Shown here: piece after piece, positions 4,919-25,489 of the stretch
How positions within the stretch are numbered: position 1 is the stretch's first letter
Layout: every line of letters begins with the position of its first letter
Source: an uncultured Planctomycetales bacterium
GTDB lineage: Bacteria > Omnitrophota > Gorgyraeia > Zapsychrales > Zapsychraceae
Direction: 5' to 3'
Assembly (NCBI GenBank): GCA_964535935.1
Contig: CAZHWM010000024.1
Location: forward strand, 171 to 64,170
DNA length: 64,000 nt
Translations under genes and position numbers: made by a program
Notes under the pieces: model-generated
Seen by the model: the letters and a program-made list of their open reading frames with translations, nothing else
What the model was told of the DNA's origin: nothing
The model's database searches: none

Positions 4919-6655
4919 TTATATTACTTTTTGCTTTGTTTCCTGTATTACTCTTAAAATAAAATCTTTTATAGAGAATATACCTTCATCACCTTTGCCA
5001 TATTTCCTCACAGATACCGTAGTTGTCTCTATTTCTTTATTACCAACAATAAGCAAATAAGGGATTTTCTGCATTGTGTTATCTCTTATACGTTTATTCA
5101 GGCTCTCGTTCCTGTTATCTACAAAAACTCTTATTCCTTTATCCTGCAAATCTTCTTTTACTTTGTCTGCAAAACTATTATGTTCGGTTTTTATTGGTAT
5201 TATAACAGCCTGTGTTGGTGCCAACCATACCGGAAAAGCCCCTGCATAATGCTCAATCAATGTACCAATAAACCTTTCCAAACTACCTAACAAGGCTCGG
5301 TGTATCATTATCGGTTGACTTTCTCCTCCTTCTTCATTAGTATAACTCAAGTTAAACCGTTCAGGCAATGCAAAATCACACTGAATAGTTGCTGCCTGCC
5401 ATTCTCGCTGAAGGGCATCTTTCAACTTGATGTCTATTTTGGGGCCATAAAAAGCACCTTCTCCTTCGTGAATCTGGTATTTAAGTCCTTTTTCCTTCAT
5501 AGATTCTTCTAATGCTGTTGTAGCGATTTCCCATTTTTGTTCGGAACCTATAAATTTCTCTGGACGGGTACTGAGCTCTATTACCACGTCCTTAAAACCA
5601 AAATCCTTTAAAATGTCAAAAACAAAATTTATTACCTCTTTCACTTCTGATTTAATCTGCGATTCTCTACAGAAAATATGCCCGTCATCTTGAGTAAATC
5701 CTCGCACCCGCAATAACCCATGAAGCACACCTGCCTTTTCTTTACGGTAGACAGTTCCTAATTCAAAAAAACGCAACGGCATATCACGCCAAGATCTAAG
5801 CCGTGATTTATATATCAACATATGGCCGGGGCAATTCATTGGTTTTACTGCATACCGCTCATTATCCACATTGAAAAAATACATATTTTCACTATAATAA
5901 TCTGCGTGTCCACTCTGCTCCCATAGGTCTTTCTTCAATATATGAGGAGTGCATACTAGTTCATATCCTCGACGAATATGTTGTGTTTCAATATAATCTA
6001 CTATAATCTTACGAAGCATAGCACCTGCCGGAGAATAAAAAACAAGCCCTGCGCCTGCGGCCTCCTGGAAAAAATTAAAAAGTCCTAACTGGATCCCTAA
6101 TTTACGATGATCTCGTTTCTGAGCTTCATCTAAAATTCTAAGGTATTCATCTAGCTCCTGCTTTGAATAAAAACAAGTACCATATATTCTCTGTAATTGA
6201 GGATTTCTTTCATCCCCTTTCCAATAAGCACCTGCAATCGATAATAACTTAAATGCCTTAATCTGCCCTGCTTTTTCTACATGAGGACCTTTACATAAAT
6301 CAAAGAATCCTGTATCTCCTGTCTTGTAAATTGAAATTTTCTCCTCCTGTATCTCCTCAATTAAATTAAGTTTATATGTCTCTCCTAATTTGGAGAAAAT
6401 CTTAATTGCCTCTTGTTTGTCAACAAAAGTCTGCTCAAATGCTGAATTAGTATCTATAATCTCTTGCATTCGGTTTTCTATCTTTTCAAGATCTTCATCC
6501 GTAAACGGTTCACTTTTATCAAAATCATAATAAAATCCATTTTCAATAGCCGGACCTATTCCCAATTTTACCTCTGGCCAAAGATCCTTTACTGCCTGAG
6601 CTAATATATGAGAACAACTATGCCTTAATTTTTCTAAATCCTTGTTATCTTGCAT
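4919..6655 (-). CDS. thrS: Threonyl-tRNA synthetase (short form, no N-terminal TGS domain)
   Basis: Has the editing-domain HxxxH motif (RHSCSHILAQA), class II catalytic core motifs and a C-terminal anticodon-binding domain. The start is set at MQDNKDLEKL (6655) because the upstream 17 codons of the track ORF overlap tRNA-Val. Confidence 0.9.
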   Translation of the reverse strand: MQDNKDLEKLRHSCSHILAQAVKDLWPEVKLGIGPAIENGFYYDFDKSEPFTDEDLEKIENRMQEIIDTNSAFEQTFVDKQEAIKIFSKLGETYKLNLIEEIQEEKISIYKTGDTGFFDLCKGPHVEKAGQIKAFKLLSIAGAYWKGDERNPQLQRIYGTCFYSKQELDEYLRILDEAQKRDHRKLGIQLGLFNFFQEAAGAGLVFYSPAGAMLRKIIVDYIETQHIRRGYELVCTPHILKKDLWEQSGHADYYSENMYFFNVDNERYAVKPMNCPGHMLIYKSRLRSWRDMPLRFFELGTVYRKEKAGVLHGLLRVRGFTQDDGHIFCRESQIKSEVKEVINFVFDILKDFGFKDVVIELSTRPEKFIGSEQKWEIATTALEESMKEKGLKYQIHEGEGAFYGPKIDIKLKDALQREWQAATIQCDFALPERFNLSYTNEEGGESQPIMIHRALLGSLERFIGTLIEHYAGAFPVWLAPTQAVIIPIKTEHNSFADKVKEDLQDKGIRVFVDNRNESLNKRIRDNTMQKIPYLLIVGNKEIETTTVSVRKYGKGDEGIFSIKDFILRVIQETKQKVI

Positions 6656-8521: not shown

Positions 8522-11500
8522 CTAATTAGTGGTTAAATTGGTTGAGCCATCCGTTTGAACAGCAAATTTAAATTGAAGGTTACCTCCCGGCGTACCATCA
8601 AAAGAAAGTATTTCCATTTTAGCATAATATCCTTCCCTAGTAATAAAAACATAAACCGTTCCTGCCCCTTCATTAATCACCCCTGCTGTTGTATATCCTG
8701 AAGTAGGCGCTTCTGTAATTTGATTAAATGTTTGCCCTGTAATCTTTTGCAAACCAGTGGTTCCAAAGATTAAATTATCTTCGAAATCCATATCGCTATT
8801 ACTAGATGCTGCGGTAACTTCTACATTTGATGTGGCATCAAACCCAATGCCAGGAAATCCCGGCACATTTAAAATAGGTGTGGTATATACTGTTAATGCA
8901 GCAGATGACGAGGTTACTCCACCTGAATCTTCCACTTCCCCTGCACCTGGTTGCTCAGGGTTACGTTCATCTCTGGCTGTTCTAATTTTACTTACAACAG
9001 ACGGGCTTTTGCCTGAAGCCTGCGCTATCTCTGGAGAAAGAGTGGCATAAATCAAATCACCTCGCAAATTTTTAATCTTCATCTTTCCATCTTCTAAAAC
9101 AAACATAAAAGTAGTGTGCCCGGATGTCCTCTGTTCTTCTCCTGTTTTAATCGGTGTCTGGGTTTTATCCCATTTAGTTGTAACTACAAAAAAATTACTT
9201 CTTTTTTCTATTCTGTTAATATAAATAAGAAGACGAATATTATTAAAAAGATCAAAATCAAATCGAACCCCTTCTTCTAAAAGGGCCTTATTTCCTAAAT
9301 AATCTCGTGAAATGTAACGACTAAAAGCATTTATATCTTTTCTTTCGTAAGCATTTGCTATTTCTTTAACTGTCTTGACAATAAGGGTGTTAAAATTAAC
9401 ATCTTTAAATAAAAATTTATCTACATTAGGAAACAATTTCACCATGGGTTCTCTGCCATCTGCTGTTTGAATCTTTAAAATAAAATCGTAATATCTATCG
9501 GATAATGGCGTAAATGCAAAATGAATATCGGATGCAACTGGAATTTGACTCCATGTCCTGCCCCCATCTATTGAAAACAGCATCTTTTTCGCCTGCTTAG
9601 TAGTAAATAGTTTGGCATCAATTACTATTTCTCCTAGACGTAAATTTTCTTTTGTTAAAATAACTGTCCCTCTGGCATTCTGCAATGACCTCGAATTTAA
9701 ACGTGCATTTTCAATAGAATATCCATAAAATCCTGCTAATCTAAATGGACTCATAGACCTAAGGTCCTGATCCCCTTGCTCTTCAGCTTTCATATATTCT
9801 TTTTTTTGGATACGCTCTGATTCTTTCTCTGCAATCTTACGATTTAATTCAGCTTCATAAGCATGATAATCGCCATTTAACTGTTCTACTCTTTGGGCTA
9901 AATGTGTATACATTCTCCCAATATCACAGGAGATCAATTTTTTTGAGTGCATTGCCTTTTTCGCAGCATCTGTCAAGACGTAATATATTACTTGTTTGGA
10001 CGGACTAAATTTACGATAATACTGCTTTAAAGTTAAATGATGCATTGCTGCTTTACGTTGATCTTCTCGTTGTATATCCTCTTTAGTGGGAATATCCATT
10101 AATCCTGGAACTAATTGAGCAATTTTCTCCATGATTTTACTATATTTCGGATCTCTAGCTCTAACATTCAAAGCCAAACTCAAAGCCCTTTTCAAATTAT
10201 CTTCATAGATAGGAGCACTACTTCTTCCGAGAAGTATGAAGTTAGAACATCTGGCGGCTTTAATATTATTAAGAGACATAATCTTTTCCCATCTATTAAA
10301 ATGTAACGGTGCATTTGAACGAATAAAAGAACGAATATTGTGAGGTAAAGAATCCCATGCTTTCAAAATAGGTTCGACTATTTTATCCAATTCCTTACGC
10401 GTTGCATAATGTGGAAAAGGCTCTGTCATTAACAACATACCATTTAATAGTCTCGCCGGCAACACAACACGATAATCATCATTTATTCCACCCCTTTCGA
10501 TTAATTTTTTCTCCTCCAATTCTTTAAAAAACATCGTTATACGCTTTAGTTTTTTCTCTATATTATCTCTATCTATCTCTTTATTCTTTTGGATTAATTC
10601 AAGCCTATGCACTGCTACATCAAGTTGTGCCGGCAACATCCTTAATTCTTTAATGCTTTCTATAGATTGAGTAATTTTATTTATATTATCTAATGGATTA
10701 AATGATGGATCCACTAAAACACGTATCTGATCAACTTCTGAGGCTGATGGAATATCTAAATTATGGAATTCTTTTATAACTTCATCCCATTCAGCGAATT
10801 TATTTCTTAAATCTGTTGCCTCATTTACCATAACAAGTGGCAATCCCGGATTATTATCTACTGGCGGCAATAATTTAGATAATTGAAGAGGAATTTGATA
10901 TGCTAAAATAGGGGGTTGTTCTACAGGATGTGGCATATAGGTATAGGTTATATTGTCTGCTTCTTTCAATAATTTAACAGCACGATTATATAAAATATTT
11001 GATAATCCAGGTGTTGGCAATACAACTGCTATACGATTACACTGTTCAATAAACAACTCTTCCCGTCTCTTAAGCACTTCTGCTAAACTATGATACGCCT
11101 TATTAATATGTAAAAGTTTAGACAATTCTGTATTATACTCTAATTGTGATGCGCTGAGCAAATTTTCTAAGACATCTTTTGCAATATGAATAGCCGCGCC
11201 CCATGCCTCATTATCCGGGATTGTATCTTGAACCTCAGACGGACGATTAGCAATCACTTCTTGCATTTTCTGACGTATTTTGTGAAAGTATTGACTTTTA
11301 GCAATCAAAACATCTTTTTTCCAAAAATCAATAATATTCTTGGCGCCAATAAAATCTCCTTTATTAAGCTGCAATGTAATTTTCTTCTCAAGTTCAGATT
11401 CATTGCCTGTTAAAGATAATCGCATGGGTTTTTTATCAATATCAAAAACTTGAACAGTGGCTGATACTGAAGAAAAATCAAATTTCTTTAATATTTTAGA

Positions 11501-12844
11501 AAAATATTTTGAATAATAATCCTTAGCTTTCGTCTTATCCTCATAATAAGCTTCTCTATATTTTGGATCTCCTTTATACGCTGGAAACTTTGTAGATATA
11601 ACATCTGTAGAGATATTCTCTTCTAGTGCATCAACTTTATCATTCAATTTAAGTTTCAATTTTAACCACTTTTCTCTCTCTGCATAAAGCGCTCTGGATA
11701 AACTAGGATTTATTCTCTCCATTCTGCTTGCTGCCTCAAGGCAATTTAATTGCCATCTATCAATAGTCTTCTCCAAAGAATAGGCTTTCTTTAGACTAGC
11801 TCCATTTATTTGATTTACCATAGACAACATTTTTTTATATTCTTGTTTGCTCTTCGCTGGCAATTTGACTAAGTTTTTTTCTGCAGCCTTATTCTTTTTT
11901 ATTTCTAAAAACTCTTTTAACATTCTATCGAAATCGTTATGGTAAAAATGGCTCACTCGTTTCACGAAAGCATCAAACTCTGCCATCTGTTTACGCAACC
12001 TCGCTTGCTCCCAAGATAACTTAGCCTGTTTGTTCACATCTTTAATTAAGTGCATAATCCAGCCACGAGCCTTATTTCTCCATTCATTAGCTAAAAGCCT
12101 TATTTCCGCACTTTTTTTTGTATCGATACCCGAACCTATAGACATCCAACTTTTCATATACTCCGACCAACTTTCCTCTGGCCACTGTTCACCTAATGCA
12201 GTCTTAACATATGATTTAACTAAGGCTCTGGTCGAGTCATTAGTTATTAAATACTTATCAAAAAAATAATCTGCCATCTTAGCAGTCTCAGGAATTAAAG
12301 GAGGGCTATCACTATCAGGATCCACAACCCCCATAAGCCTGCGGTCATTTGAACAAATACAATATAAACGTTCTATATCCAAAGCAGCTTGAGAAGACTC
12401 TAGCATCTTATGTGACTGATAGGTCAACTTAGCCATTTCCCATGTTAAGCTTACCAAAGGATTATCAATCGCGCCTACGCCTTGATCTATTGCTGTAAAC
12501 GCAGCATCATCGTAACGGCCTTCTGTCATTGCAATAGAGAAGGTTTCTATGGCTTTTACAGTATCAACTATTTTGCCTATTTTTTCCCTTGCTTCTGGGA
12601 TCTTGGCCTCTGGATCACCAGTCATAAAAGACTCTATCCCGCCTACAGAATCCCACAACCAGTCAGTATATTCATCAGAAGCTGTTTGTCTTAAGCCCTC
12701 TACAACATCCCTTTTAGAGGCCATAGCGGTTGCAGCATTTAAACCTAACTGCACAAACTTAGAGTCCTCGTCGGCACATCCATTAATAGGATGTAACATT
12801 ATTGTAATTACCAAACTTACCCAAAATATTTTTTTTAATGACAT
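8522..12844 (-). CDS. Giant (1440 aa) secreted protein, probable lipoprotein, function unknown
   Basis: GAGGAAAG RBS. Signal peptide MSLKKIFWVSLVITIMLHPINGC with Cys at position 23. Long, mostly helical middle rich in charged residues. The C-terminal third looks like beta-rich modules plus an NTF2/SnoaL-like segment (DINAFSRYISRDYLG...FFVVTTKWD), followed by a Gly/Thr-rich terminal beta domain. I recognise no catalytic motif. Confidence 0.7.
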   Translation of the reverse strand: MSLKKIFWVSLVITIMLHPINGCADEDSKFVQLGLNAATAMASKRDVVEGLRQTASDEYTDWLWDSVGGIESFMTGDPEAKIPEAREKIGKIVDTVKAIETFSIAMTEGRYDDAAFTAIDQGVGAIDNPLVSLTWEMAKLTYQSHKMLESSQAALDIERLYCICSNDRRLMGVVDPDSDSPPLIPETAKMADYFFDKYLITNDSTRALVKSYVKTALGEQWPEESWSEYMKSWMSIGSGIDTKKSAEIRLLANEWRNKARGWIMHLIKDVNKQAKLSWEQARLRKQMAEFDAFVKRVSHFYHNDFDRMLKEFLEIKKNKAAEKNLVKLPAKSKQEYKKMLSMVNQINGASLKKAYSLEKTIDRWQLNCLEAASRMERINPSLSRALYAEREKWLKLKLKLNDKVDALEENISTDVISTKFPAYKGDPKYREAYYEDKTKAKDYYSKYFSKILKKFDFSSVSATVQVFDIDKKPMRLSLTGNESELEKKITLQLNKGDFIGAKNIIDFWKKDVLIAKSQYFHKIRQKMQEVIANRPSEVQDTIPDNEAWGAAIHIAKDVLENLLSASQLEYNTELSKLLHINKAYHSLAEVLKRREELFIEQCNRIAVVLPTPGLSNILYNRAVKLLKEADNITYTYMPHPVEQPPILAYQIPLQLSKLLPPVDNNPGLPLVMVNEATDLRNKFAEWDEVIKEFHNLDIPSASEVDQIRVLVDPSFNPLDNINKITQSIESIKELRMLPAQLDVAVHRLELIQKNKEIDRDNIEKKLKRITMFFKELEEKKLIERGGINDDYRVVLPARLLNGMLLMTEPFPHYATRKELDKIVEPILKAWDSLPHNIRSFIRSNAPLHFNRWEKIMSLNNIKAARCSNFILLGRSSAPIYEDNLKRALSLALNVRARDPKYSKIMEKIAQLVPGLMDIPTKEDIQREDQRKAAMHHLTLKQYYRKFSPSKQVIYYVLTDAAKKAMHSKKLISCDIGRMYTHLAQRVEQLNGDYHAYEAELNRKIAEKESERIQKKEYMKAEEQGDQDLRSMSPFRLAGFYGYSIENARLNSRSLQNARGTVILTKENLRLGEIVIDAKLFTTKQAKKMLFSIDGGRTWSQIPVASDIHFAFTPLSDRYYDFILKIQTADGREPMVKLFPNVDKFLFKDVNFNTLIVKTVKEIANAYERKDINAFSRYISRDYLGNKALLEEGVRFDFDLFNNIRLLIYINRIEKRSNFFVVTTKWDKTQTPIKTGEEQRTSGHTTFMFVLEDGKMKIKNLRGDLIYATLSPEIAQASGKSPSVVSKIRTARDERNPEQPGAGEVEDSGGVTSSSAALTVYTTPILNVPGFPGIGFDATSNVEVTAASSNSDMDFEDNLIFGTTGLQKITGQTFNQITEAPTSGYTTAGVINEGAGTVYVFITREGYYAKMEILSFDGTPGGNLQFKFAVQTDGSTNLTTN

Positions 12845-13122: not shown

Positions 13123-14850
13123 CTAAAAAAGGCAAGTATATGTAAGAATCGTCTGCATTTCCTTATAATTTAAATCGCCATCTGCATTCATGTGCCTCGT
13201 CAAATTATATTTCAAGATAATATGTTTATCTTTATTACGTCCAAAAACCCAATCTATTTCCGTAAAATTCTGATAATTCTCATAATCTTTATCTGCCTCT
13301 GCAGCATTACTATCTATAACATTATAGCCAAAACGACTAGATACATTACTTGTTATATAATACTCTCCTGAAAATGAGAGAGATAAATTAACATCTTTGT
13401 TAAAATCTTTTTTACTTCGTCTAATATCAACAGATGGATTTAAAGAAAGATAACATCGTCTGGAAAAAATCTGTAATTCTCTCGCAAAAGAACAATTAAT
13501 CCGGTTAAAATATTCAGATAAACTTTTATCCGCTAAGTTACTGTAAGCACGATATTCATATGAAAAATCTATATTAGTTCCGCCAAATTGGTCTGCTATA
13601 CTAAAACCAGTTGTAATTGTTCTACTCTCTGCTGTATTTGCAGGGTCATCAGAGTTCCGTGACATATACGAATTATAAAACCTAGTATGCAAATTTTTTC
13701 TTGCCCTAGAAGGGAAAACGTCTACATTGATATCTTTCTCATCGGTTATTGTTCTTTTTGACAGGCTGCTATTTTTCAAATGATCCCAATAATAATTTTC
13801 CATAAAAGAAACCGATAAAATGTCATTAAAACGATGATTTATCGTGAATTGATGCTGTATTTTATCTGGTGATGCCGACCCAGTATCAGTATAGAACATA
13901 GGTTGTGTATAATTATACACATACCTATAAATAGTATTCCCTATCTGAAATTCCGGTGCAACATGAAAAGAATTGCCACAACTCTGGTCCTTATCTCCTG
14001 ATGTATCTTCATCAGGGAGATAAAAACTCCTGGCAAATTCATAAACAACAGAAAAATTGTTAACAAAAACTATCTCACCATCAATTGAAAATATGCTATT
14101 TCTTAAATCTTTAAAACTAGATGTCCTATCCGCAGTAGCACTATCATCTTGTATGCTTACAGCCTGCATACCTACACGTATCTTCTGGAACAAAGATGAA
14201 TGATTCAAAGGAAAAGAATCGATTTTTATCCCAAAAACATTTCTTTGAAATTTAGAAGCAGCCTCATCCGCAGCATTTTTTCTAGCAACAACCATCTTAA
14301 CATTAAATCGTTCAGATGACTTCAATTCGAGATTAAATCCTTCAAGAGAAGAATTCAATGTGAAAGGAGAGAATTCGCCGTAAAAATCACCAAATGCGAA
14401 AAGATTATAAGGATTAGATATCTTAAAAGAATATTGTTTAACACGAACGTCCTTACGCGGCTCCAAAGAATATTTATCGGTCTTTCTAAGACGCAATTCG
14501 GTTTCAAAAATATAATCAGAATACAATTTTTCCTGCAAATTTAAATTTAATTCTGTAATATAATCCACGCCTTCTTTCAAAAATGACTTTGATTTATTAC
14601 CGCTTAATTTATTATATTCCAACCTTGTTGAAAACCTACCTTTAATTATACCTGACCTTTGAGATAAAGATCTATGCGAACTAAAATCACATAAATCATG
14701 TAACCTTTCATACAACGAATACTTTCGTTGGTTACCTAATTGGATCTCATCATTACCACCAAGGTAATACACATCAGCCGCAAATAAAATATTATTTGTT
14801 ACAAACAGTAAAAACAAACAACAAAAAAATAAAAGTCTATTTTGATTCAT
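13123..14850 (-). CDS. Putative outer-membrane beta-barrel protein (575 aa), family unknown
   Basis: AGAGGA RBS. Sec signal MNQNRLLFFCCLFLLFVTNNILFA/AD. Alternating hydrophobic pattern rich in Y, N and S. C-terminal ...ILTYTCLF ends in Phe, a typical BAM-targeting beta-signal. Confidence 0.65.
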   Translation of the reverse strand: MNQNRLLFFCCLFLLFVTNNILFAADVYYLGGNDEIQLGNQRKYSLYERLHDLCDFSSHRSLSQRSGIIKGRFSTRLEYNKLSGNKSKSFLKEGVDYITELNLNLQEKLYSDYIFETELRLRKTDKYSLEPRKDVRVKQYSFKISNPYNLFAFGDFYGEFSPFTLNSSLEGFNLELKSSERFNVKMVVARKNAADEAASKFQRNVFGIKIDSFPLNHSSLFQKIRVGMQAVSIQDDSATADRTSSFKDLRNSIFSIDGEIVFVNNFSVVYEFARSFYLPDEDTSGDKDQSCGNSFHVAPEFQIGNTIYRYVYNYTQPMFYTDTGSASPDKIQHQFTINHRFNDILSVSFMENYYWDHLKNSSLSKRTITDEKDINVDVFPSRARKNLHTRFYNSYMSRNSDDPANTAESRTITTGFSIADQFGGTNIDFSYEYRAYSNLADKSLSEYFNRINCSFARELQIFSRRCYLSLNPSVDIRRSKKDFNKDVNLSLSFSGEYYITSNVSSRFGYNVIDSNAAEADKDYENYQNFTEIDWVFGRNKDKHIILKYNLTRHMNADGDLNYKEMQTILTYTCLF

Positions 14851-18121: not shown

Positions 18122-18991
18122 TTATTCAAAAGAAACTCCCTTTTTTATAATACTCACAATCCTATCAAGTTCATCCATTGAATAATACTCTACAACGAGC
18201 TTCCCTCTGCTTTTCCGAAAAGAAAGGCGCACCTTTGTTCCTAATAATTTTTGTAATTTTTCCTCAAGGGCAATTAATTCGTGAGCTATTGCATCCTGTT
18301 TGGGTCCTCGCTGCCCTTTTTTATTAGTCTGACGCGCTAGCTTTACCATACGTTCAATCTCGCGAACAGACAATTTTTTCTTAGTTACCATCTCAAATAA
18401 ATTCATCTGTTCCTCGGTGTCATCGGAACCAAGCAATGCACGGGCATGACCTGTAGTAATCTGCCCTTTTACTAATGCCTCTCTTATACGTGATGGTAGT
18501 TTTAATAGCCGCAACATATTAATTATTGTAGTAGTTCCCTTACCTACTGAACGAGCAATCTCATTATAAGTAAAATTAAATTCTTCCATCAGTCTTTTAT
18601 ACGCCTCTGCCTCCTCAATGGGATTGAGGTCCTCCCGTTGAATATTCTCTACTAATGCCAAAATCAAAGATTCATTATCAGATACTTCTTTAATTATAAC
18701 AGGAACCTTAACCAAGTTTATTGCCCTAGCAGCCCGCAACCTACGCTCTCCGGCTATCACTTCATAGCCATCCCCCTGTTTGCGCACAAGAATAGGCTGT
18801 AATACCCCTTTCTCTTTTATTGAGACCTTCAACTCTTCTAATTTTGCATCGTCATAATCTGAACGGGGCTGAAGACTATTATCTCTTATCAATGCTGTAT
18901 CTACATATGCAACAACATTTTCATCAACAGAACTATTTTCTTTTTCAGGAATAAGAGCTGATAACCCTTTACCCAAAACTCTTTTAGACAT
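18122..18991 (-). CDS. parB: Chromosome partitioning protein ParB/Spo0J
   Basis: MSKRVLGKGLSALI N-terminus, the ParB-box GERRLRAA arginine patch and an HTH region. GGAGGGTGGT lies directly upstream of ATG 18991. Confidence 0.9.
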   Translation of the reverse strand: MSKRVLGKGLSALIPEKENSSVDENVVAYVDTALIRDNSLQPRSDYDDAKLEELKVSIKEKGVLQPILVRKQGDGYEVIAGERRLRAARAINLVKVPVIIKEVSDNESLILALVENIQREDLNPIEEAEAYKRLMEEFNFTYNEIARSVGKGTTTIINMLRLLKLPSRIREALVKGQITTGHARALLGSDDTEEQMNLFEMVTKKKLSVREIERMVKLARQTNKKGQRGPKQDAIAHELIALEEKLQKLLGTKVRLSFRKSRGKLVVEYYSMDELDRIVSIIKKGVSFE

Positions 18992-19058
18992 ACCACCCTC
19001 CATAGGGAAATTTCATTATTAACACATAATTTATTTAAATATAAACAGATACAACAAA

Positions 19059-19829
19059 ATGTCCACTCTGAATACCTTTTTTCTTATCTATTTATCATAT
19101 CAAAATAGACATTTTTATCATCATCTCTTTTATCTACTCTACACACTTTTTTTATTAAACAAGAAAATATCTTTAATAAATTTCTTATTTACAATCTCAA
19201 AATAAACACTCCCATTATCTTTGTTCATTGTCCACTCTAAAAAACACCTTAACTCTTTTAGTTAGAATATATTAGAAATAAATGTCCACTCTGAACTATC
19301 TATTAAGCCTTCTTCTTTTCACATTCAGAGTGGACATTTTATCATAACTCATTAAAATACAATAAAATAAAAGAAATTCAGAGTGGACAAAAAAATGAGA
19401 TAGAAATGTCCACTCTGAATATCAATTTTTCAAAATAAATAAAAATATACTTTATGGTTGTCTATTTTCTTTAATATATTTATACTCTCGTCTCAAAACA
19501 AACAAATCTAAAAATGTCCACTCTAAAAAAATAATCTAACTTCTTTAATTACAACATATTACAAATAAATGTCCACTCTGAATTTTCTATTTAACCTTCT
19601 CCTAGACACTATTCAAAAAAACATTCCTATATTACTCTCTTTTATCTTCTTTATCCTATTTAACTAACACAAAAAATACTAACTTATATGCCAACATCTC
19701 CATTCTAAATCATTACCTTTCAACTTCTTTCTCATTATAAATCAGAGTGGACATTTCTAATTTGTCCACTCTAAAAAATTATTTAATTACTTTATTTACA
19801 ATATATTACAAATAAATGTCCACTCTAAA
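19059..19829. repeat. Array of 11 copies (plus 1 degenerate) of the 14-nt motif (A/T)TGTCCACTCT(G/A)AA in the parB-parA gap
   Basis: Plus orientation: 19059-19072, 19228-19241, 19282-19295, 19406-19419, 19514-19527, 19569-19582, 19762-19775, 19816-19829. Minus orientation: 19324-19337, 19377-19390, 19741-19754. Degenerate: 19696-19709. Three ~68-bp composite units (19228-19295, 19514-19582, 19762-19829) each hold two boxes 54-55 bp apart with a conserved spacer ...ATATTA(C/G)AAATAA. Confidence 0.9.
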
Positions 19830-19853
19830 CTATATATACTAAAAACTAAAAAA

Positions 19854-20669
19854 TCAATCCCTTCGAAACAAATCCGGAGAATTTTCTTTCACTTCATCTA
19901 CCTGTTCTGGCTCCATACCAATAAACTCAAAAGCTAATTCTTTATATCTCTGTGCACCTATAGAATGACTATCATACAAATTAATAGGCTTGCCATGACT
20001 TGGAGCCTCGCTAAGTTTTATATTTCTTGGAATAATAGTATTATATACCTTATCTTTAAAATATGTCTTTATCTCATTTATAACTTCTGATGTTAAATTT
20101 GTCCTAAAATCTGCCATAGTTAATAACACACCCTCTATACATAGAGAAGAATTAAGGTCATTTTTTATTAATTGAATAGTATTTAACAATTGCGATACCC
20201 CTTCCAATGCATAAAATTCACACTGTATAGGAATAAGGATAGAATCACTAGCTACAAGTGCATTCAATGTTAATAATCCCAAAGATGGTGGTGAGTCTAT
20301 AAAAATATAATCATATTTTTCTTTTATAGGTTCAAGCGCCTTTTTTAACCTATTTTCTCTTGAAAAAGCCCCAACTAATTCTATTTCTGCTCCTGTTAAA
20401 TTAATATTACAAGGAATAAGATCTATACCTATACATATATCCCTCATTATAGTCTCTTCTACTGTACTCTTATTTAGCAATAAATCATAAACAGATTTAT
20501 TTAACTCATTTTTATTTACACCTACCCCACTCGTAGCATTACCTTGAGGGTCCGCATCAACAAGCAAAACCCTTTTCCCTAGCTCCCCCAGACTCGCAGA
20601 TAGGTTAACAGCAGTGGTTGTTTTTCCCGTGCCACCTTTTTGATTACAAATAGATATACTTTTTGCCAT
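19854..20669 (-). CDS. parA: Chromosome partitioning ATPase ParA/Soj
   Basis: MAKSISICNQKGGTGKTTTAVNLS is a deviant Walker A. VLLVDADPQGNAT matches ParA. ATG 20669 is preferred; the track start 20684 is a GTG five codons upstream. Confidence 0.9.
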   Translation of the reverse strand: MAKSISICNQKGGTGKTTTAVNLSASLGELGKRVLLVDADPQGNATSGVGVNKNELNKSVYDLLLNKSTVEETIMRDICIGIDLIPCNINLTGAEIELVGAFSRENRLKKALEPIKEKYDYIFIDSPPSLGLLTLNALVASDSILIPIQCEFYALEGVSQLLNTIQLIKNDLNSSLCIEGVLLTMADFRTNLTSEVINEIKTYFKDKVYNTIIPRNIKLSEAPSHGKPINLYDSHSIGAQRYKELAFEFIGMEPEQVDEVKENSPDLFRRD

Positions 20670-20739
20670 TTTTATAATTTTCACATGAAATAAAAAAATA
20701 ATTAATAATAATTAAAATATAAAAAACAACAAAATTTCA

Positions 20740-20946
20740 CTATTGTCCACTCTGCTGTTTTTTCAAAGATACCTTTATCTTTGCTGGCTTCGCTGCCTTC
20801 ATACCAAACAATCCTTTCTTCTCTTCACATACTATTTTAACAATAATATCTTCTCTGGACACTTTTAGCATATTCATGGCCTTTTTTATTGCATCTTCTA
20901 CAGTATTCCCCTCCACTTCTATGCTTTTTGATAAATTATTATCCAT
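20740..20946 (-). CDS. Jag/KhpB N-terminal-domain-only protein (68 aa)
   Basis: IEVEGNTVEDAIKKAMNMLKVSREDIIVKIVCEEKKGLFGMKAAKPAKIKV matches the Jag_N pattern. Located downstream of yidC, as jag normally is. No KH or R3H domains follow. Confidence 0.65.
   Translation of the reverse strand: MDNNLSKSIEVEGNTVEDAIKKAMNMLKVSREDIIVKIVCEEKKGLFGMKAAKPAKIKVSLKKQQSGQ
20743..20756 (+). repeat. Outlying copy of the TGTCCACTCT motif (TTGTCCACTCTGCT)
   Basis: Overlaps the last codons of the jag-N ORF, ~75 bp upstream of the parA start. Confidence 0.7.
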
Positions 20947-21057
20947 TTTTCCCCCTATTATCCATTTAAATAATTTCTGCGGGAAAACAAACCATTAATA
21001 TTTTAGAGGAAACTAAATTCTGTATTTTAAAATTTGTATTTAACCAACCATGGTTTA

Positions 21058-21071
21058 ATGTCCACTCTGGA
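21058..21071 (+). repeat. Outlying copy of the TGTCCACTCT motif (ATGTCCACTCTGGA)
   Basis: Lies between the yidC stop (21084) and the jag-N start (20946). Confidence 0.7.
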
Positions 21072-21083
21072 TAAAATTTTAAA

Positions 21084-22676
21084 TTATTTATTTTTAATCC
21101 TAGCTAATTTCCATTGTGTAAAACAAGATAATAAATTATTTGTTGTCCAATATAACGTTAAACCACTAGCAAATTTATAAAATATGGCGCCAAAAAATAT
21201 CGGCATTAATATCCGCATCATCTTTTGTTGAGCCTCTTGCTCCGGATCCATATTTGCCATATTAGCAGATGACAATCTTTGTTGAAAAAACATTAAAAAC
21301 ATTATTATGATAGGTAAAATATTTATCTCATTTCCTATGAAAGGTAAATTAATTGGTAAAATAAACAATCTATCAGGTGCTGTTAAATCCTTTATCCATA
21401 AAAAACTAGCATCTTTAAATGCTACATCTCTCCATAAAGCCTGTAATAATCCTAAAAATATAGGCATCTGCAGAAACATTGGTAAGCATCCCGCCATAGG
21501 ATTAACATTGTTCCTTTTATAAAGTTCCATTATCTCTATATTAAGTTTTTGCGGATTATTTTTATATTTTTCTTTTAATGCTGCCATCTGTGGTTGCAGC
21601 GCCTGCATCTTACGCATAGAAATCATATTTTTTAATGTTATAGGATAGGTAATACTATATACTAAAATACTCATTATAATAATACATATTCCCCAATTTG
21701 GAATAAATTTATGTAACGCATGTATAATACGATTTACTATCTTTCCCATAATATCAAATAATCCCCATTTATAGTATCTTTTAATTTTGGTAAAATCGGG
21801 GTCTATTTGTTTTAAAATATCCCAACTTTCAGGCCCTATATATATTAAAGAAACAAAATTAAAATTTTCTTTGTTTTTTATATTTTTTGGAATAACTATT
21901 ATATTGGCATGCTCAGAATTTTTTACATGAATAATATATCCTGATGTTTCATATTTAGGCTTTATAATAGCACAATAGTATTTATCTCTAAATCCAGTCC
22001 AAATAACGTGTCCTGTAATATAACGTTCTTCTTTTTTAGAAAATTTATAAGCATTATTTTTTCTGAACATGCCTTTATCAGAATAAATAACATATTCTAA
22101 TAGTGATCTATTTCTAGCACTCAAACTACTTTTTTTAATTTTCGTCATATCTAAAGAATATGTATTTATTTTTAATATATTATTATTTCTAGATTTATTT
22201 TTATAATATATATTAATATTAGAATTTATAATATAATTATTATTTAATATATATTGTTTTATTATTTTAATATTATTATTTTTATATTCATAAACAATAG
22301 TATTTTTTGTAATTTTTTTTAATAAAAATAAAACAGTATCGTATGGTATAAGTTCATTAATTTGTGTTATTGGGAGCCTTACATTGTAATTTTTAATAAA
22401 AATATCTTTTAATACTCCTCCTATATTAGAAAATTTAGCAATAAATTGCTTTGTTTCTATAGTAGTAATATTTTCATTAATTCTATTATTAGATGAAAGT
22501 TTGGAAGATTTAACAATCTTAGAATTTGATAATGAGGAACTTTCCTTGGTTTCTATAGCATCATGTTTTAATATATGATGATAACCTGGCTTTGATTTCT
22601 GAGGTGGGTTTAACAGCGACCAGAAATACAACACCAGAAATGATAGCGTTGCTGCTAATATAAGTCTTTTTTCCAT
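21084..22676 (-). CDS. yidC: Membrane protein insertase YidC (long, diderm-type with periplasmic P1 domain)
   Basis: 530 aa. N-terminal TM segment, large P1 domain, conserved C-terminal core (MRKMQALQPQMAALKEKYKNNPQKLNIEIMELYKRNNVNPMAGCLPMFLQMPIF). Follows yidD. Confidence 0.9.
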   Translation of the reverse strand: MEKRLILAATLSFLVLYFWSLLNPPQKSKPGYHHILKHDAIETKESSSLSNSKIVKSSKLSSNNRINENITTIETKQFIAKFSNIGGVLKDIFIKNYNVRLPITQINELIPYDTVLFLLKKITKNTIVYEYKNNNIKIIKQYILNNNYIINSNINIYYKNKSRNNNILKINTYSLDMTKIKKSSLSARNRSLLEYVIYSDKGMFRKNNAYKFSKKEERYITGHVIWTGFRDKYYCAIIKPKYETSGYIIHVKNSEHANIIVIPKNIKNKENFNFVSLIYIGPESWDILKQIDPDFTKIKRYYKWGLFDIMGKIVNRIIHALHKFIPNWGICIIIMSILVYSITYPITLKNMISMRKMQALQPQMAALKEKYKNNPQKLNIEIMELYKRNNVNPMAGCLPMFLQMPIFLGLLQALWRDVAFKDASFLWIKDLTAPDRLFILPINLPFIGNEINILPIIIMFLMFFQQRLSSANMANMDPEQEAQQKMMRILMPIFFGAIFYKFASGLTLYWTTNNLLSCFTQWKLARIKNK

Positions 22677-22897: not shown

Positions 22898-22982
22898 TAA
22901 TAAAAATTATATATAATATTATATATATATTAAAAAAAAATATATATATTTAAATTTATAATTTTAATAATTTATATAATAA
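22896..22982. other. ~87-bp tract containing only A and T (candidate DNA-unwinding element)
   Basis: No G or C between the yidD start codon and position 22983. Lies inside the 169-bp yidD-rpmH spacer where rnpA normally sits. Confidence 0.5.
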
Positions 22983-23066
22983 CAATTATGGAAAGCTGTA
23001 TATTTAAACTTATATCATTTTAACGAAAGACAAACAATATAAATTATACTTTATTTTATCTTTCAT

Positions 23067-23764: not shown

Positions 23765-23886
23765 TCATTCACATACTATCCTAAATTTTTATTATTTTGG
23801 AGTTGTGAATAACTTGTGAACAACTTTTTTATTTTTTTTATAACTTATTATAATTAAACAAGTTACAAAAATAAAAGTTATTCACC
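23765..23886. promoter_or_regulatory. Cluster of four DnaA-box-like 9-mers (TTATNCACA type) just upstream of dnaA
   Basis: TCATTCACA 23765-23773. TGTGAATAA 23804-23812 (complement TTATTCACA). TGTGAACAA 23815-23823 (complement TTGTTCACA). TTATTCACC 23878-23886. Confidence 0.6.
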
Positions 23887-23929: not shown

Positions 23930-25270
23930 ATGACATTAAAAAAAATATGGGAACAATCACAAAATAGAATAAAAAAAAGAATAGGCGCTACATCCTATGA
24001 AACATGGTTTTCCGCATTAAATATAAAAGAAAAGAATAATAATATACTTCTAATAGAAACTCCTGATGCCTTTTTTAAAAATTGGATTGTAGAACATTAT
24101 AAAAATGTTATTAATGATGAAATAAATAATATATCCTCTTCTAAAATACAAATAGAATTTGGAGTAAATCCTAATATAATAGAAAAAACAACTCAAGAAC
24201 GCCTTACTAAACTTGAACTAGGATTTAAAGAATCTGAAAATAGTAATACTTTAAATCTTAATTCAAGATTTACATTTGAAAATTTTGTTATAGGCCCGTC
24301 AAACCGTTTCGCGTGTGCTGCATGTCTCGCTGTTGCAGAATCACCAGCGAAAACCTATAATCCCCTTTTTATATATGGAAAAGTTGGTCTTGGAAAAACA
24401 CATCTCATTCAAGCAATAACACATAAAATAAAAGAATTACATCCACATTTAAAATATTGTTATATTTCTTCAGAAAGATTTACTAATGAACTTATAGATG
24501 CAATTCGTACACGTTCAACCTCTGAATTTAGAAAAAAATATAGAGAAATAGATGTATTGCTTATAGATGATATCCAATTTATTGCGGGAAAAGAATCGAC
24601 ACAAGAAGAATTTTTTCATACATTCAATTATTTACACAATAATAGAAAACAAATAATAATTACTTCAGATCATCCTCCAAAACAAATAACTCATTTGGAA
24701 GAACGGCTAACATCAAGGTTTGCATGGGGACTCATAGCTGATATACAACCCCCTGACTTTGAAACAAGGGTTGCTATATTAAGAAAAAAAGTTGAAAAAG
24801 AGACAGTAAATGTCCCTGAGGATGTCATTTTCTTTATTGCGGATCAAATAAAATCTAATATAAGAGAACTTGAAGGCGCCCTTGTACGTGTAGCCGCTTA
24901 TTCTTTATTAGAAGATAAACCTATCACTCTTAATATGACAAAAATTATTTTGAAAGATATGGTAAAAGAGGCTACAAAAAATATAAATGTAGAAATGATA
25001 CAAAAATGTGTATGTAATTTTTTTAAAGTATCTTTAAATGATTTAAAGGCATATAAAAGAAATAAAAATATTATACTTCCCAGACAGATAGCTATGTATT
25101 TATCACGACAATTAACTAATATGTCATTACCTGAAATAGGTCGTGCTTTTGGTAGAAAAGATCACGCAACTGTAATGCATTCTTGTAAAAAAATAGAAAA
25201 AGATATTAACTCAAATGAAGAATTAAAGAGTATTTTAACTAAAATCACGGCTATCTTAATGGAATGCTAA
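23930..25270 (+). CDS. dnaA: Chromosomal replication initiator protein DnaA
   Basis: Walker A GKVGLGKTHL, Walker B LLIDDIQF, domain IV HTH ...GRKDHATVMHSCKKIE. ATG 23930 is preceded by AGGGG. The track start 23900 is a TTG ten codons upstream. Confidence 0.95.
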   Translation: MTLKKIWEQSQNRIKKRIGATSYETWFSALNIKEKNNNILLIETPDAFFKNWIVEHYKNVINDEINNISSSKIQIEFGVNPNIIEKTTQERLTKLELGFKESENSNTLNLNSRFTFENFVIGPSNRFACAACLAVAESPAKTYNPLFIYGKVGLGKTHLIQAITHKIKELHPHLKYCYISSERFTNELIDAIRTRSTSEFRKKYREIDVLLIDDIQFIAGKESTQEEFFHTFNYLHNNRKQIIITSDHPPKQITHLEERLTSRFAWGLIADIQPPDFETRVAILRKKVEKETVNVPEDVIFFIADQIKSNIRELEGALVRVAAYSLLEDKPITLNMTKIILKDMVKEATKNINVEMIQKCVCNFFKVSLNDLKAYKRNKNIILPRQIAMYLSRQLTNMSLPEIGRAFGRKDHATVMHSCKKIEKDINSNEELKSILTKITAILMEC

Positions 25271-25412: not shown

Positions 25413-25421
25413 TTATTCACA
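25413..25421 (+). promoter_or_regulatory. DnaA-box-like TTATTCACA in the dnaA-dnaN spacer
   Basis: One mismatch to the E. coli-type consensus TTATCCACA, at the tolerated N position. Confidence 0.45.
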
Positions 25422-25489
25422 ACCGCTACTTATATTACTACTATAATAATTATTTTATTAATAGTATGTTATAAAAGAAAGGAAAGTCT

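Follow-up and report, generated by a model that had tools for sequence, protein, structure and literature searches.

The window (the whole 64-kb stretch analyzed here) is the origin region of an A/T-rich Omnitrophota genome, and the element in question is an array of short repeats in the gap between the partition genes parA and parB. On the minus strand, the genes follow in the order gmk, yicC, parB, an 850-bp gap, parA, an open reading frame (ORF) with a Jag_N domain only, yidC, yidD, and rpmH; on the plus strand, dnaA, dnaN, dciA, and gyrB follow beyond rpmH. This synteny (dnaA-dnaN-gyrB, rpmH-yidD-yidC, and yicC-gmk) is that of chromosomal housekeeping genes, and the nearest named homologs of the window ParB all belong to Omnitrophica/Omnitrophota. 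The genes around the gap are the following:

18122–19003, minus strand, parB (Pfam ParB_N, HTH_ParB, and ParB_C)
19854–20669, minus strand, parA (Pfam; Soj-type, without N-terminal helix-turn-helix [HTH]; the mechanical ORF listing extends to 20684)
20740–20946, minus strand, jag-N, an ORF of 68 aa with the Jag_N domain only (Pfam)
21084–22676, minus strand, yidC (Pfam)

The initial annotation had placed parA and parB 850 bp apart (19004–19853), with no ORF of at least 60 aa in the gap, and this is what we find. It had also described a cluster of iterons splitting parA from parB, with further copies upstream of parA and of jag-N, and this cluster is indeed present. The motif TGTCCACTCT (as a longer site word, TGTCCACTCTGAA) occurs in 13 exact copies at 19060–21068, 11 of them in the gap (19060, 19229, 19283, 19327(-), 19380(-), 19407, 19515, 19570, 19744(-), 19763, and 19817) and the two others at 20744 and 21059. 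With at most one mismatch, 15 matches occur in the 64 kb against 1.95 ± 1.39 expected, a number reached in none of 100 shuffles. The relative L082 (GCA_054039975.1), with a ParB 91% identical to that of the window, allows a site-by-site comparison. The scatter expected of a repetitive extragenic palindrome (REP) or a miniature inverted-repeat transposable element (MITE), named in the initial annotation as grounds for refuting its candidates, is not seen: the motif is confined to the par locus, with nothing like the array elsewhere in the 64-kb window or in 20 kb of L082. The only exact copy outside the par locus, at 5907–5916, lies within thrS without the flanking bases of the consensus and has a counterpart at the corresponding position of the L082 thrS (14614); it is therefore a coding coincidence and not a site. 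The features of the array are:

19057–19832, array of 11 exact copies of (A/T)TGTCCACTCT(G/A)AA, eight on the plus and three on the minus strand, with at least five decayed copies, occupying the whole parA-parB spacer (motif search; site-by-site conservation in L082)
19228–19303, plus strand, composite unit 1, a pair of direct boxes 54 bp apart whose A/T-rich spacer ..TTAGAATATATTAGAAATAA.. is conserved (unit also in L082)
19515–19590, plus strand, composite unit 2, boxes 55 bp apart, spacer ..TTACAACATATTACAAATAA.. (repeat family, L082 alignment)
19762–19837, plus strand, composite unit 3, boxes 54 bp apart, spacer ..TTACAATATATTACAAATAA.. (repeat family, L082 alignment)
19377–19419, inverted box pair with 17 bp between the boxes (repeat search)
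19741–19775, inverted box pair with 9 bp between the boxes (motif search)
20741–20756, plus strand, isolated copy TATTGTCCACTCTGCT, ~75 nt upstream of the start codon of parA and at the jag-N 3′ end (degenerate in L082)
21056–21071, plus strand, isolated copy TAATGTCCACTCTGGA in the yidC-jagN spacer (four copies in the counterpart spacer of L082)
19038–19065, minus strand, promoter-like TGGACA-16-TATATT directed towards parB, with the -35 within motif copy 1 (10/12 matches; both hexamers kept in L082)

Both inverted pairs had been reported, as had the 11 good copies in the gap; the single degenerate copy given with them is an undercount, since alignment of the gap with that of L082 reveals at least five decayed ones (~19100–19114, 19130–19143, 19196–19209, 19613–19626, and 19696–19709). 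The three composite units exist with the claimed box distance of 54–55 bp, each 76 nt long. Their 44-bp A/T-rich spacer is conserved and contains a 10-bp-phased ATTACAA/ATTAGAA duplication. By eye, no match to the consensus WATCAANNNNTTR of the integration host factor (IHF) is present in the spacer. The spacer may introduce a bend, or a second factor may sit on it, as IHF does in P1 parS. The element at 19038–19065 is a putative promoter of parB.

In L082, synteny is kept and the parA-parB gap measures 900 bp; the genome L083 (GCA_054043285.1) carries the same ParB. L082 contains 22 sites (20 TGTCCA-N-TCT and two TGTCTA-N-TCT): the gap holds 18 and the yidC-jagN spacer the other four. When the two gaps are aligned, exact boxes stand amid divergent spacers with indels, and some sites have decayed in only one of the two genomes. 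Exact boxes amid diverging spacers, together with site-by-site decay, form the pattern of redundant, selected binding sites. On a short contig, L088, ParB is 76% identical and the parA-parB spacer of ~290 bp consists nearly entirely of ~10 tandem 23-bp units with TGTCCAATCTGGACCA. This unit includes the perfect 5-3-5 palindrome GTCCA-ATC-TGGAC, whose letters are arranged as in a site bound by a dimer. The window has a degenerate right half (TGAAT, TGAAC, TGGAT, or TAAAA). Thus the array that was to be sought between parA and parB of related genomes is present in L082 and, as 23-bp tandems, in L088. What stays constant over the three array lineages is TGTCCA-N-TCT, with G>A, R, and A after it. 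Conservation does extend past a 9-mer, as had been claimed, but motif position 7 is free among the relatives (with the word TGTCCA-N-TCT-G/A-R-A). ParB and ParA are the only DNA-binding proteins whose genes consistently adjoin the array in all three lineages.

A 48-aa ORF at 19059–19205 was considered as a small gene in the gap and rejected, because a 56-bp indel interrupts it in L082. A scan of 18.5–26 kb against Rfam gave no match, and an RNA is an unlikely reading of the array since L088 holds direct repeats only, with which hairpins are impossible.

In the sister genomes L089, L212, and L213 (ParB 55%–57% identical to that of the window), the synteny is identical and the array absent. There, parA and parB are separated by 17–33 nt, and yidC and jagN by 4–5 nt. 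Since the sister parA and parB lie so close, the parA-parB spacer and its array were inserted in the window's sub-lineage alone. In a scan of a genome collection with ParB, the best match was only 52% identical, so that the lineage is absent from that collection, and the scan served only as background for parS and for R173. A search for homologs of ParA, which is too conserved, found no further close relative; a search with 56 aa around the ParB recognition helix gave three candidates only; and a metagenome scan with TGTCCAMTCT-N15-45-TGTCCAMTCT returned at least 120 unrelated tandem repeats, none of those listed encoding ParA, ParB, YicC, or Jag. In the Logan contigs L081, L084, and L085, short-read assemblies break inside the array, 340–390 bp upstream of parB. 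Because short-read assemblies of the lineage break there, such arrays should be under-represented in metagenome assemblies.

A canonical parS is absent from the window, with no parS above chance at up to three mismatches over the 64 kb. The motif itself, as the initial annotation had remarked, does not resemble parS and is no 16-bp palindrome TGTTNCACGTGAAACA with a few mismatches; it is only partially identical, with TCCAC in common with a GTTCCAC-type half-site or, in an ungapped alignment, TGT...TGAA in common with the full site. The parS core TTCACGTGAA is found in 50 of 91 loci (80 parB loci of other genomes plus copies of the window lineage and near relatives); it is absent from the window, L082, and L086. 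In the jagN-parA spacer, L089, L212, and L213 have one or two intact palindromes (T/A/C)TTTCACGTGAAA(A) (sister-type TTTTCACGTGAAAA), and in the window, their place is taken by a decayed relic:

20679–20690, decayed parS relic TTTCACATGAAA (in extended form, TTTTCACATGAAAT), 10 nt upstream of the parA start; the counterpart in L082 is TTTCACATGGAA
L089 8884–8899, L212 8852–8867 and 8885–8900, and L213 9115–9130 and 9138–9153, sister palindromes (T/A/C)TTTCACGTGAAAA without guanine-1, between jagN and parA

Residues S172 and R173 of ParB touch parS, with R173 hydrogen-bonding to guanine-1 (Jalal et al., PMC7383237). In a selection among 160,000 variants, R173 is invariant in the parS-specific ones, and a lysine at either 179 or 184 makes new specificity possible (PMC7383237). 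The residues reading parS are R173 and G201, with the conserved Q162, G170, K171, S172, N178, and R204 (PMC7383237). In the window, the recognition helix reads GKGTTTIIN, with G172, T173, T174, and I177 (Caulobacter numbering), and GKGTTT(I/V)IN is common to all three array-bearing lineages. The set of parS-reading residues is broken at S172 (now G) and R173 (now T), while G170, K171, N178, G201, and R204 are kept. Among 113 other nearest homologs, position 172 carries D, N, or E and position 177 carries S, T, A, or G; at position 173, 105 have R and the rest S, I, or V, and at position 174, 109 have S. G172, T173, and I177, never seen in these 113, are thus on this comparison confined to the array lineage. 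The rest of the window ParB is intact (the LGKGL N-terminal motif, GERRLRA, ENIQRE, the HTH, and the C-terminal dimerization domain, with K184 present), and the protein is expected to work as a cytidine triphosphate (CTP) clamp. The sister clade appears to be intermediate: where its ParBs have I, V, or S at 173, a T, A, or C replaces guanine-1 in the palindromes, and ParB residue 173 looks to co-vary with parS position 1. In L002, R173 occurs with AGTTTCAC... upstream of parA.

Three roles had been offered for the repeats: a displaced or second oriC or DnaA-titration module, a plasmid-style centromere for the ParAB pair, and an operator array for a regulator. The second is favored here. The motif is enriched at the par locus and conserved like a footprint, beside a ParB with a changed helix and in a lineage that has lost parS, and for these reasons, we propose, at about even confidence, that the array is a lineage-specific replacement centromere, i.e., a highly diverged parS, for the neighboring chromosomal ParB, which would no longer be able to read the usual parS. 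ParB would then bind the motif, load and spread from it, and autoregulate parB. In the course of events that we envisage, the ancestor would have had one or two parS palindromes directly upstream of parA. In the clade of the window genome, ParB would first have lost R173, and the palindromes guanine-1. Within the window's own sub-lineage, the recognition helix would have moved on to G172, T173, T174, and I177, the old parS would have decayed, and the new asymmetric word TGTCCA-N-TCT-G-R-A would have multiplied in both the parA-parB gap and the spacer separating yidC from jagN. ParB dimers would nucleate at many sites, each made of a strong half GTCCA and a weaker partner TG(G/A)A(C/T), then close as CTP clamps and spread, giving a partition complex beside the origin for ParA to act on. 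Because copy 1 overlaps the -35 and further copies precede jagN and parA, the array probably also serves as the autoregulatory operator of parB, like plasmid centromeres. Taken in its strongest form, the proposal amounts to a natural and complete re-specification of an origin-proximal chromosomal ParB from parS to an asymmetric 13-bp arrayed word, with sister lineages preserving the intermediates, and for this our confidence stays a little under even.

Several points weigh against such a centromere. The word of the window is asymmetric with a degenerate right half, and a canonical ParB dimer reads a 16-bp palindrome; within the word, the central C9 is invariant and its symmetric partner N7 is free. 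The sites are irregularly spaced and oriented, and the composite units share a conserved 44-bp spacer that hints at another factor. The motif may or may not descend from parS, alternative alignments giving between 5/7 and 7/13 identities. Functional parS-like sites could lie outside the visible 64 kb. The link between helix and array counts as one evolutionary event, because only three, non-independent lineages carry the array.

The asymmetry of the 13-nt word and the composite units with their conserved inter-box spacer, being untypical of ParB, can also be read in favor of a DNA-binding protein encoded elsewhere (nucleoid-organizing, regulatory, or a second ParB-like protein), for which the array would be the platform, with the changes in the ParB helix unrelated. 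One copy lies over the promoter-like -35 upstream of parB and others in the spacers upstream of jag and parA, in the manner of operators. However, no candidate gene for such a binder is present beside the array in the three lineages, and the large window-specific ORFs are missing in L082. More than 11 sites per 850 bp would be unusual for a transcription factor, and the loss of parS, the three never-seen helix substitutions, and the position of the array inside the par operon would all become coincidences. We consider this alternative, which covers the operator role offered before, less likely than the centromere but a serious rival to it.

The resemblance of the core TGTCCAC to a DnaA box (7/9 positions of TTGTCCACA, with four copies reading TTGTCCACT) could make of the array a set of divergent boxes bound by DnaA domain IV, either a titration or regulatory module like datA or the DnaA-box clusters (DBCs), or an accessory part of oriC. 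The array lies 4–6 kb from dnaA, within the origin region, and the DnaA of the window and of L082 has a lineage-specific T435A in the DNA-reading helix. This reading is improbable in view of the pattern of the boxes, the DnaA signature, and the skew. Position 7 of the motif, corresponding to the essential C8 of such a box, can be C, T, or A among the relatives; the TCTG beyond the 9-mer is invariant; and position 9 is T, not A. Most copies read ATGTCCACT, three mismatches away from TTWTNCACA, and so do not come within two mismatches, and conservation is not centered on a CACA core. Neither the dnaA promoter nor the dnaA-dnaN spacer contains the motif; conserved TTATTCACA, TTGTTCACA, and TTATTCACC boxes stand there instead. 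The separate DnaA boxes next to dnaA to which the initial annotation pointed are real, and they are TTATTCACA-type. The four upstream of dnaA (23765–23886) are of the TT(A/G)TTCAC(A/C) type:

23765–23773, DnaA box TCATTCACA, not conserved in L082
23804–23812, minus strand, DnaA box TTATTCACA, conserved in L082
23815–23823, minus strand, DnaA box TTGTTCACA, conserved in L082
23878–23886, DnaA box TTATTCACC, conserved in L082
25413–25421, DnaA box TTATTCACA in the dnaA-dnaN spacer, conserved in L082

The background on DnaA–DNA recognition is taken from PMC5043019 and PMC7561715. In Epsilon- and Delta-proteobacteria, K432 with S, T, or A at 435 accompanies boxes with a TTCAC core, and the DnaA of H. 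pylori disfavors C at box position 5 (PMC5043019). The window and L082 DnaA read RKDHATVMHS, with K432 and A435 (E. coli numbering; the sister clade has T435), an Epsilon/Delta-type signature that fits the TTATTCACA boxes, not TGTCCAC.

Downstream from the box at 25413–25421, on its 3′ side, come ACCG, then CTA CTT ATA TTA CTA CTA (CTACTTATATTACTACTA), and then an A/T-only run (25413–25470). The lower strand has six 3′-NAN-5′ trios, three of them the consensus 3′-GAT-5′ (DnaA-trio element 25413–25443). Box and trio element are common to the window, L082, and the distant L089, which reads TTTTACACA-ATCT-CTACTATTATTACTAC. A basal unwinding system is defined by a box with at most two mismatches, a spacer of 0–16 bp, and at least three trios (PMC8287927). 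The element of the dnaA-dnaN spacer agrees with this definition in full and is probably the real oriC unwinding site. We take its orientation to match that of B. subtilis incC. Neither a DnaA-trio run nor an A/T-only run >20 nt is present in the parA-parB gap (the longest is 20 nt); A/T-only runs of 32 and 22 nt occur in the dnaA-dnaN spacer and one of 85 nt in the yidD-rpmH spacer. The skew minimum is likewise not at the array, as an origin there would have it: the cumulative G-C minimum falls at 24692, inside dnaA, with a plateau over 22–25.5 kb, a test confounded by gene orientation. The skew of the gap is -0.55, and parA and yidC to its right keep a negative skew at the third codon position (GC3), again confounded by gene orientation.

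The tandem 23-bp units of L088 resemble plasmid iterons, and the array could also be a second, iteron-type origin or the remnant of an integrated plasmid or phage origin, with a Rep- or DnaD-like initiator; the phage fragment L192 has four internal repeats GACAAAAATGTCCACTCTGAA within a gene for a DnaD-like replisome organizer. This is very improbable: none of the lineages has an initiator gene close to the array, the window encodes no homolog of the L192 protein, the flanking genes are housekeeping genes in conserved synteny, and the gap is without an A/T run like that of a DNA unwinding element (DUE). The L192 match is also within chance, since among the 120 loci listed with the 10-mer, three match the flanks as well, against ~5–6 expected on a rough estimate. 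L192 was therefore dropped as a clue to the binder, with no window homolog and a flank match within chance. In L192 itself, the repeats lie at 1300–1440 in the phrog_7498 DnaD-like gene, with the look of an origin within a gene, as in lambda O; the 16-mer that it has in common with the motif of the window is probably a chance match.

A selfish or neutral repeat without function (REP/MITE-like or a slippage minisatellite) would account for the assemblies L081, L084, and L085 breaking at the array and for copy number and arrangement varying between relatives, but it is scarcely credible for a repeat limited to two par-operon spacers and not dispersed (over the 64-kb window and 20 kb of L082), with boxes exact while spacers diverge and with one core word kept in three lineages despite wholly different repeat architectures.

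Other peculiarities of the region are set down here as observations. The Jag/KhpB of the window is cut down to Jag_N alone, without KH or R3H, and the same short ORF is found in L082, L090, L212, and L213. The gene rnpA is missing between rpmH and yidD, its place being taken by a 169-bp spacer (22898–23066) that opens with the 85-bp pure A/T run, and it is apparently also missing at the corresponding position in related loci. Two large minus-strand ORFs, 8522–12844 (1440 aa) and 13123–14850 (575 aa), have no Pfam match; they form an insertion between gmk and the flavoprotein and thrS genes, which lie close together in L082.

The site parS is among the most conserved protein-binding DNA sites of bacteria, and to our knowledge, the Noc paralog is the only well-studied escape from it. 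If the replacement centromere is real, this would be the first such re-specification of a ParB outside the Noc paralog, and a natural experiment on the co-evolution of a protein–DNA interface without loss of an essential function, with intermediates frozen in sister genomes. It would also test whether a symmetric site is needed for loading of the CTP clamp and would provide an orthogonal ParB/site pair for labeling DNA loci. The interest lies chiefly in the possibility of a direct test by a few in vitro assays. There is in addition a warning for automated parS and oriC finders, which can mistake such arrays for DnaA-box clusters.

In chromosomal ParABS systems, where ParB/Spo0J loads as a CTP clamp at parS (TGTTNCACGTGAAACA) near oriC, ParB is full-length with LGKGL, GERRxRA, ENIQRE, an HTH, and a C-terminal dimerization domain, ParA is Soj-type, and the sites are origin-proximal and clustered around the par operon. 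The window agrees on all these counts, with its array at parAB and 4–6 kb from dnaA and from the G-C skew minimum. Unlike in those systems, the sites are not 16-bp palindromes, the ParB is without R173, and the space between parA and parB, which are usually adjacent genes, holds 11–16 sites in its 850 bp.

The closest precedent for the proposed event is the switch from ParB to Noc, which here would have taken place in the working ParB itself. Noc, which binds the Noc-binding site (NBS), is a ParB paralog re-specified by R173Q, G201R, and K179/K184 (PMC7383237). In both cases, the specificity of a ParB-family HTH would switch via a few helix residues including 173, with the permissive K184. In the window, however, the protein is apparently the sole origin-proximal ParB and is paired with ParA, instead of being a duplicated paralog; the substitutions are G172, T173, T174, and I177, and G201 is kept.

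Clusters of DnaA boxes (oriC, datA, and the DBCs of B. subtilis) also have short asymmetric words in both orientations near dnaA, with a core resembling TTGTCCACA; the array differs from them in its conservation pattern, and the organism has its own boxes and DnaA-trio element elsewhere. In type Ib and type II partition systems (parC of R1, parC of pB171, and parH of TP228), many short direct or inverted repeats over the par promoter act as centromere and operator, as is proposed here, but the window has no gene for a ribbon-helix-helix (RHH) adaptor, and the neighbor of the array is a canonical HTH ParB.

In the F plasmid, sopC consists of 12 repeats of 43 bp, and in P1, parS has asymmetric boxes A and B around an IHF site; the HTH domains of P1 ParB can use non-palindromic heptamer boxes on bent DNA. 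In such type Ia plasmid and phage systems, ParA has an N-terminal HTH and the centromere lies downstream from parB. The array shares with sopC and P1 parS the arrayed or asymmetric ParB-family sites directly beside the par genes; unlike them, it is chromosomal, in housekeeping synteny, and with a Soj-type ParA. Of the traits of a plasmid-type centromere, the array of direct and inverted repeats directly adjoining the par genes is thus present, whereas the location on a plasmid or phage with an HTH-ParA or an RHH/ParR adaptor is not, no RHH ORF being found. In function, the array looks like a ParABS centromere built in the plasmid-array style of sopC and parC.

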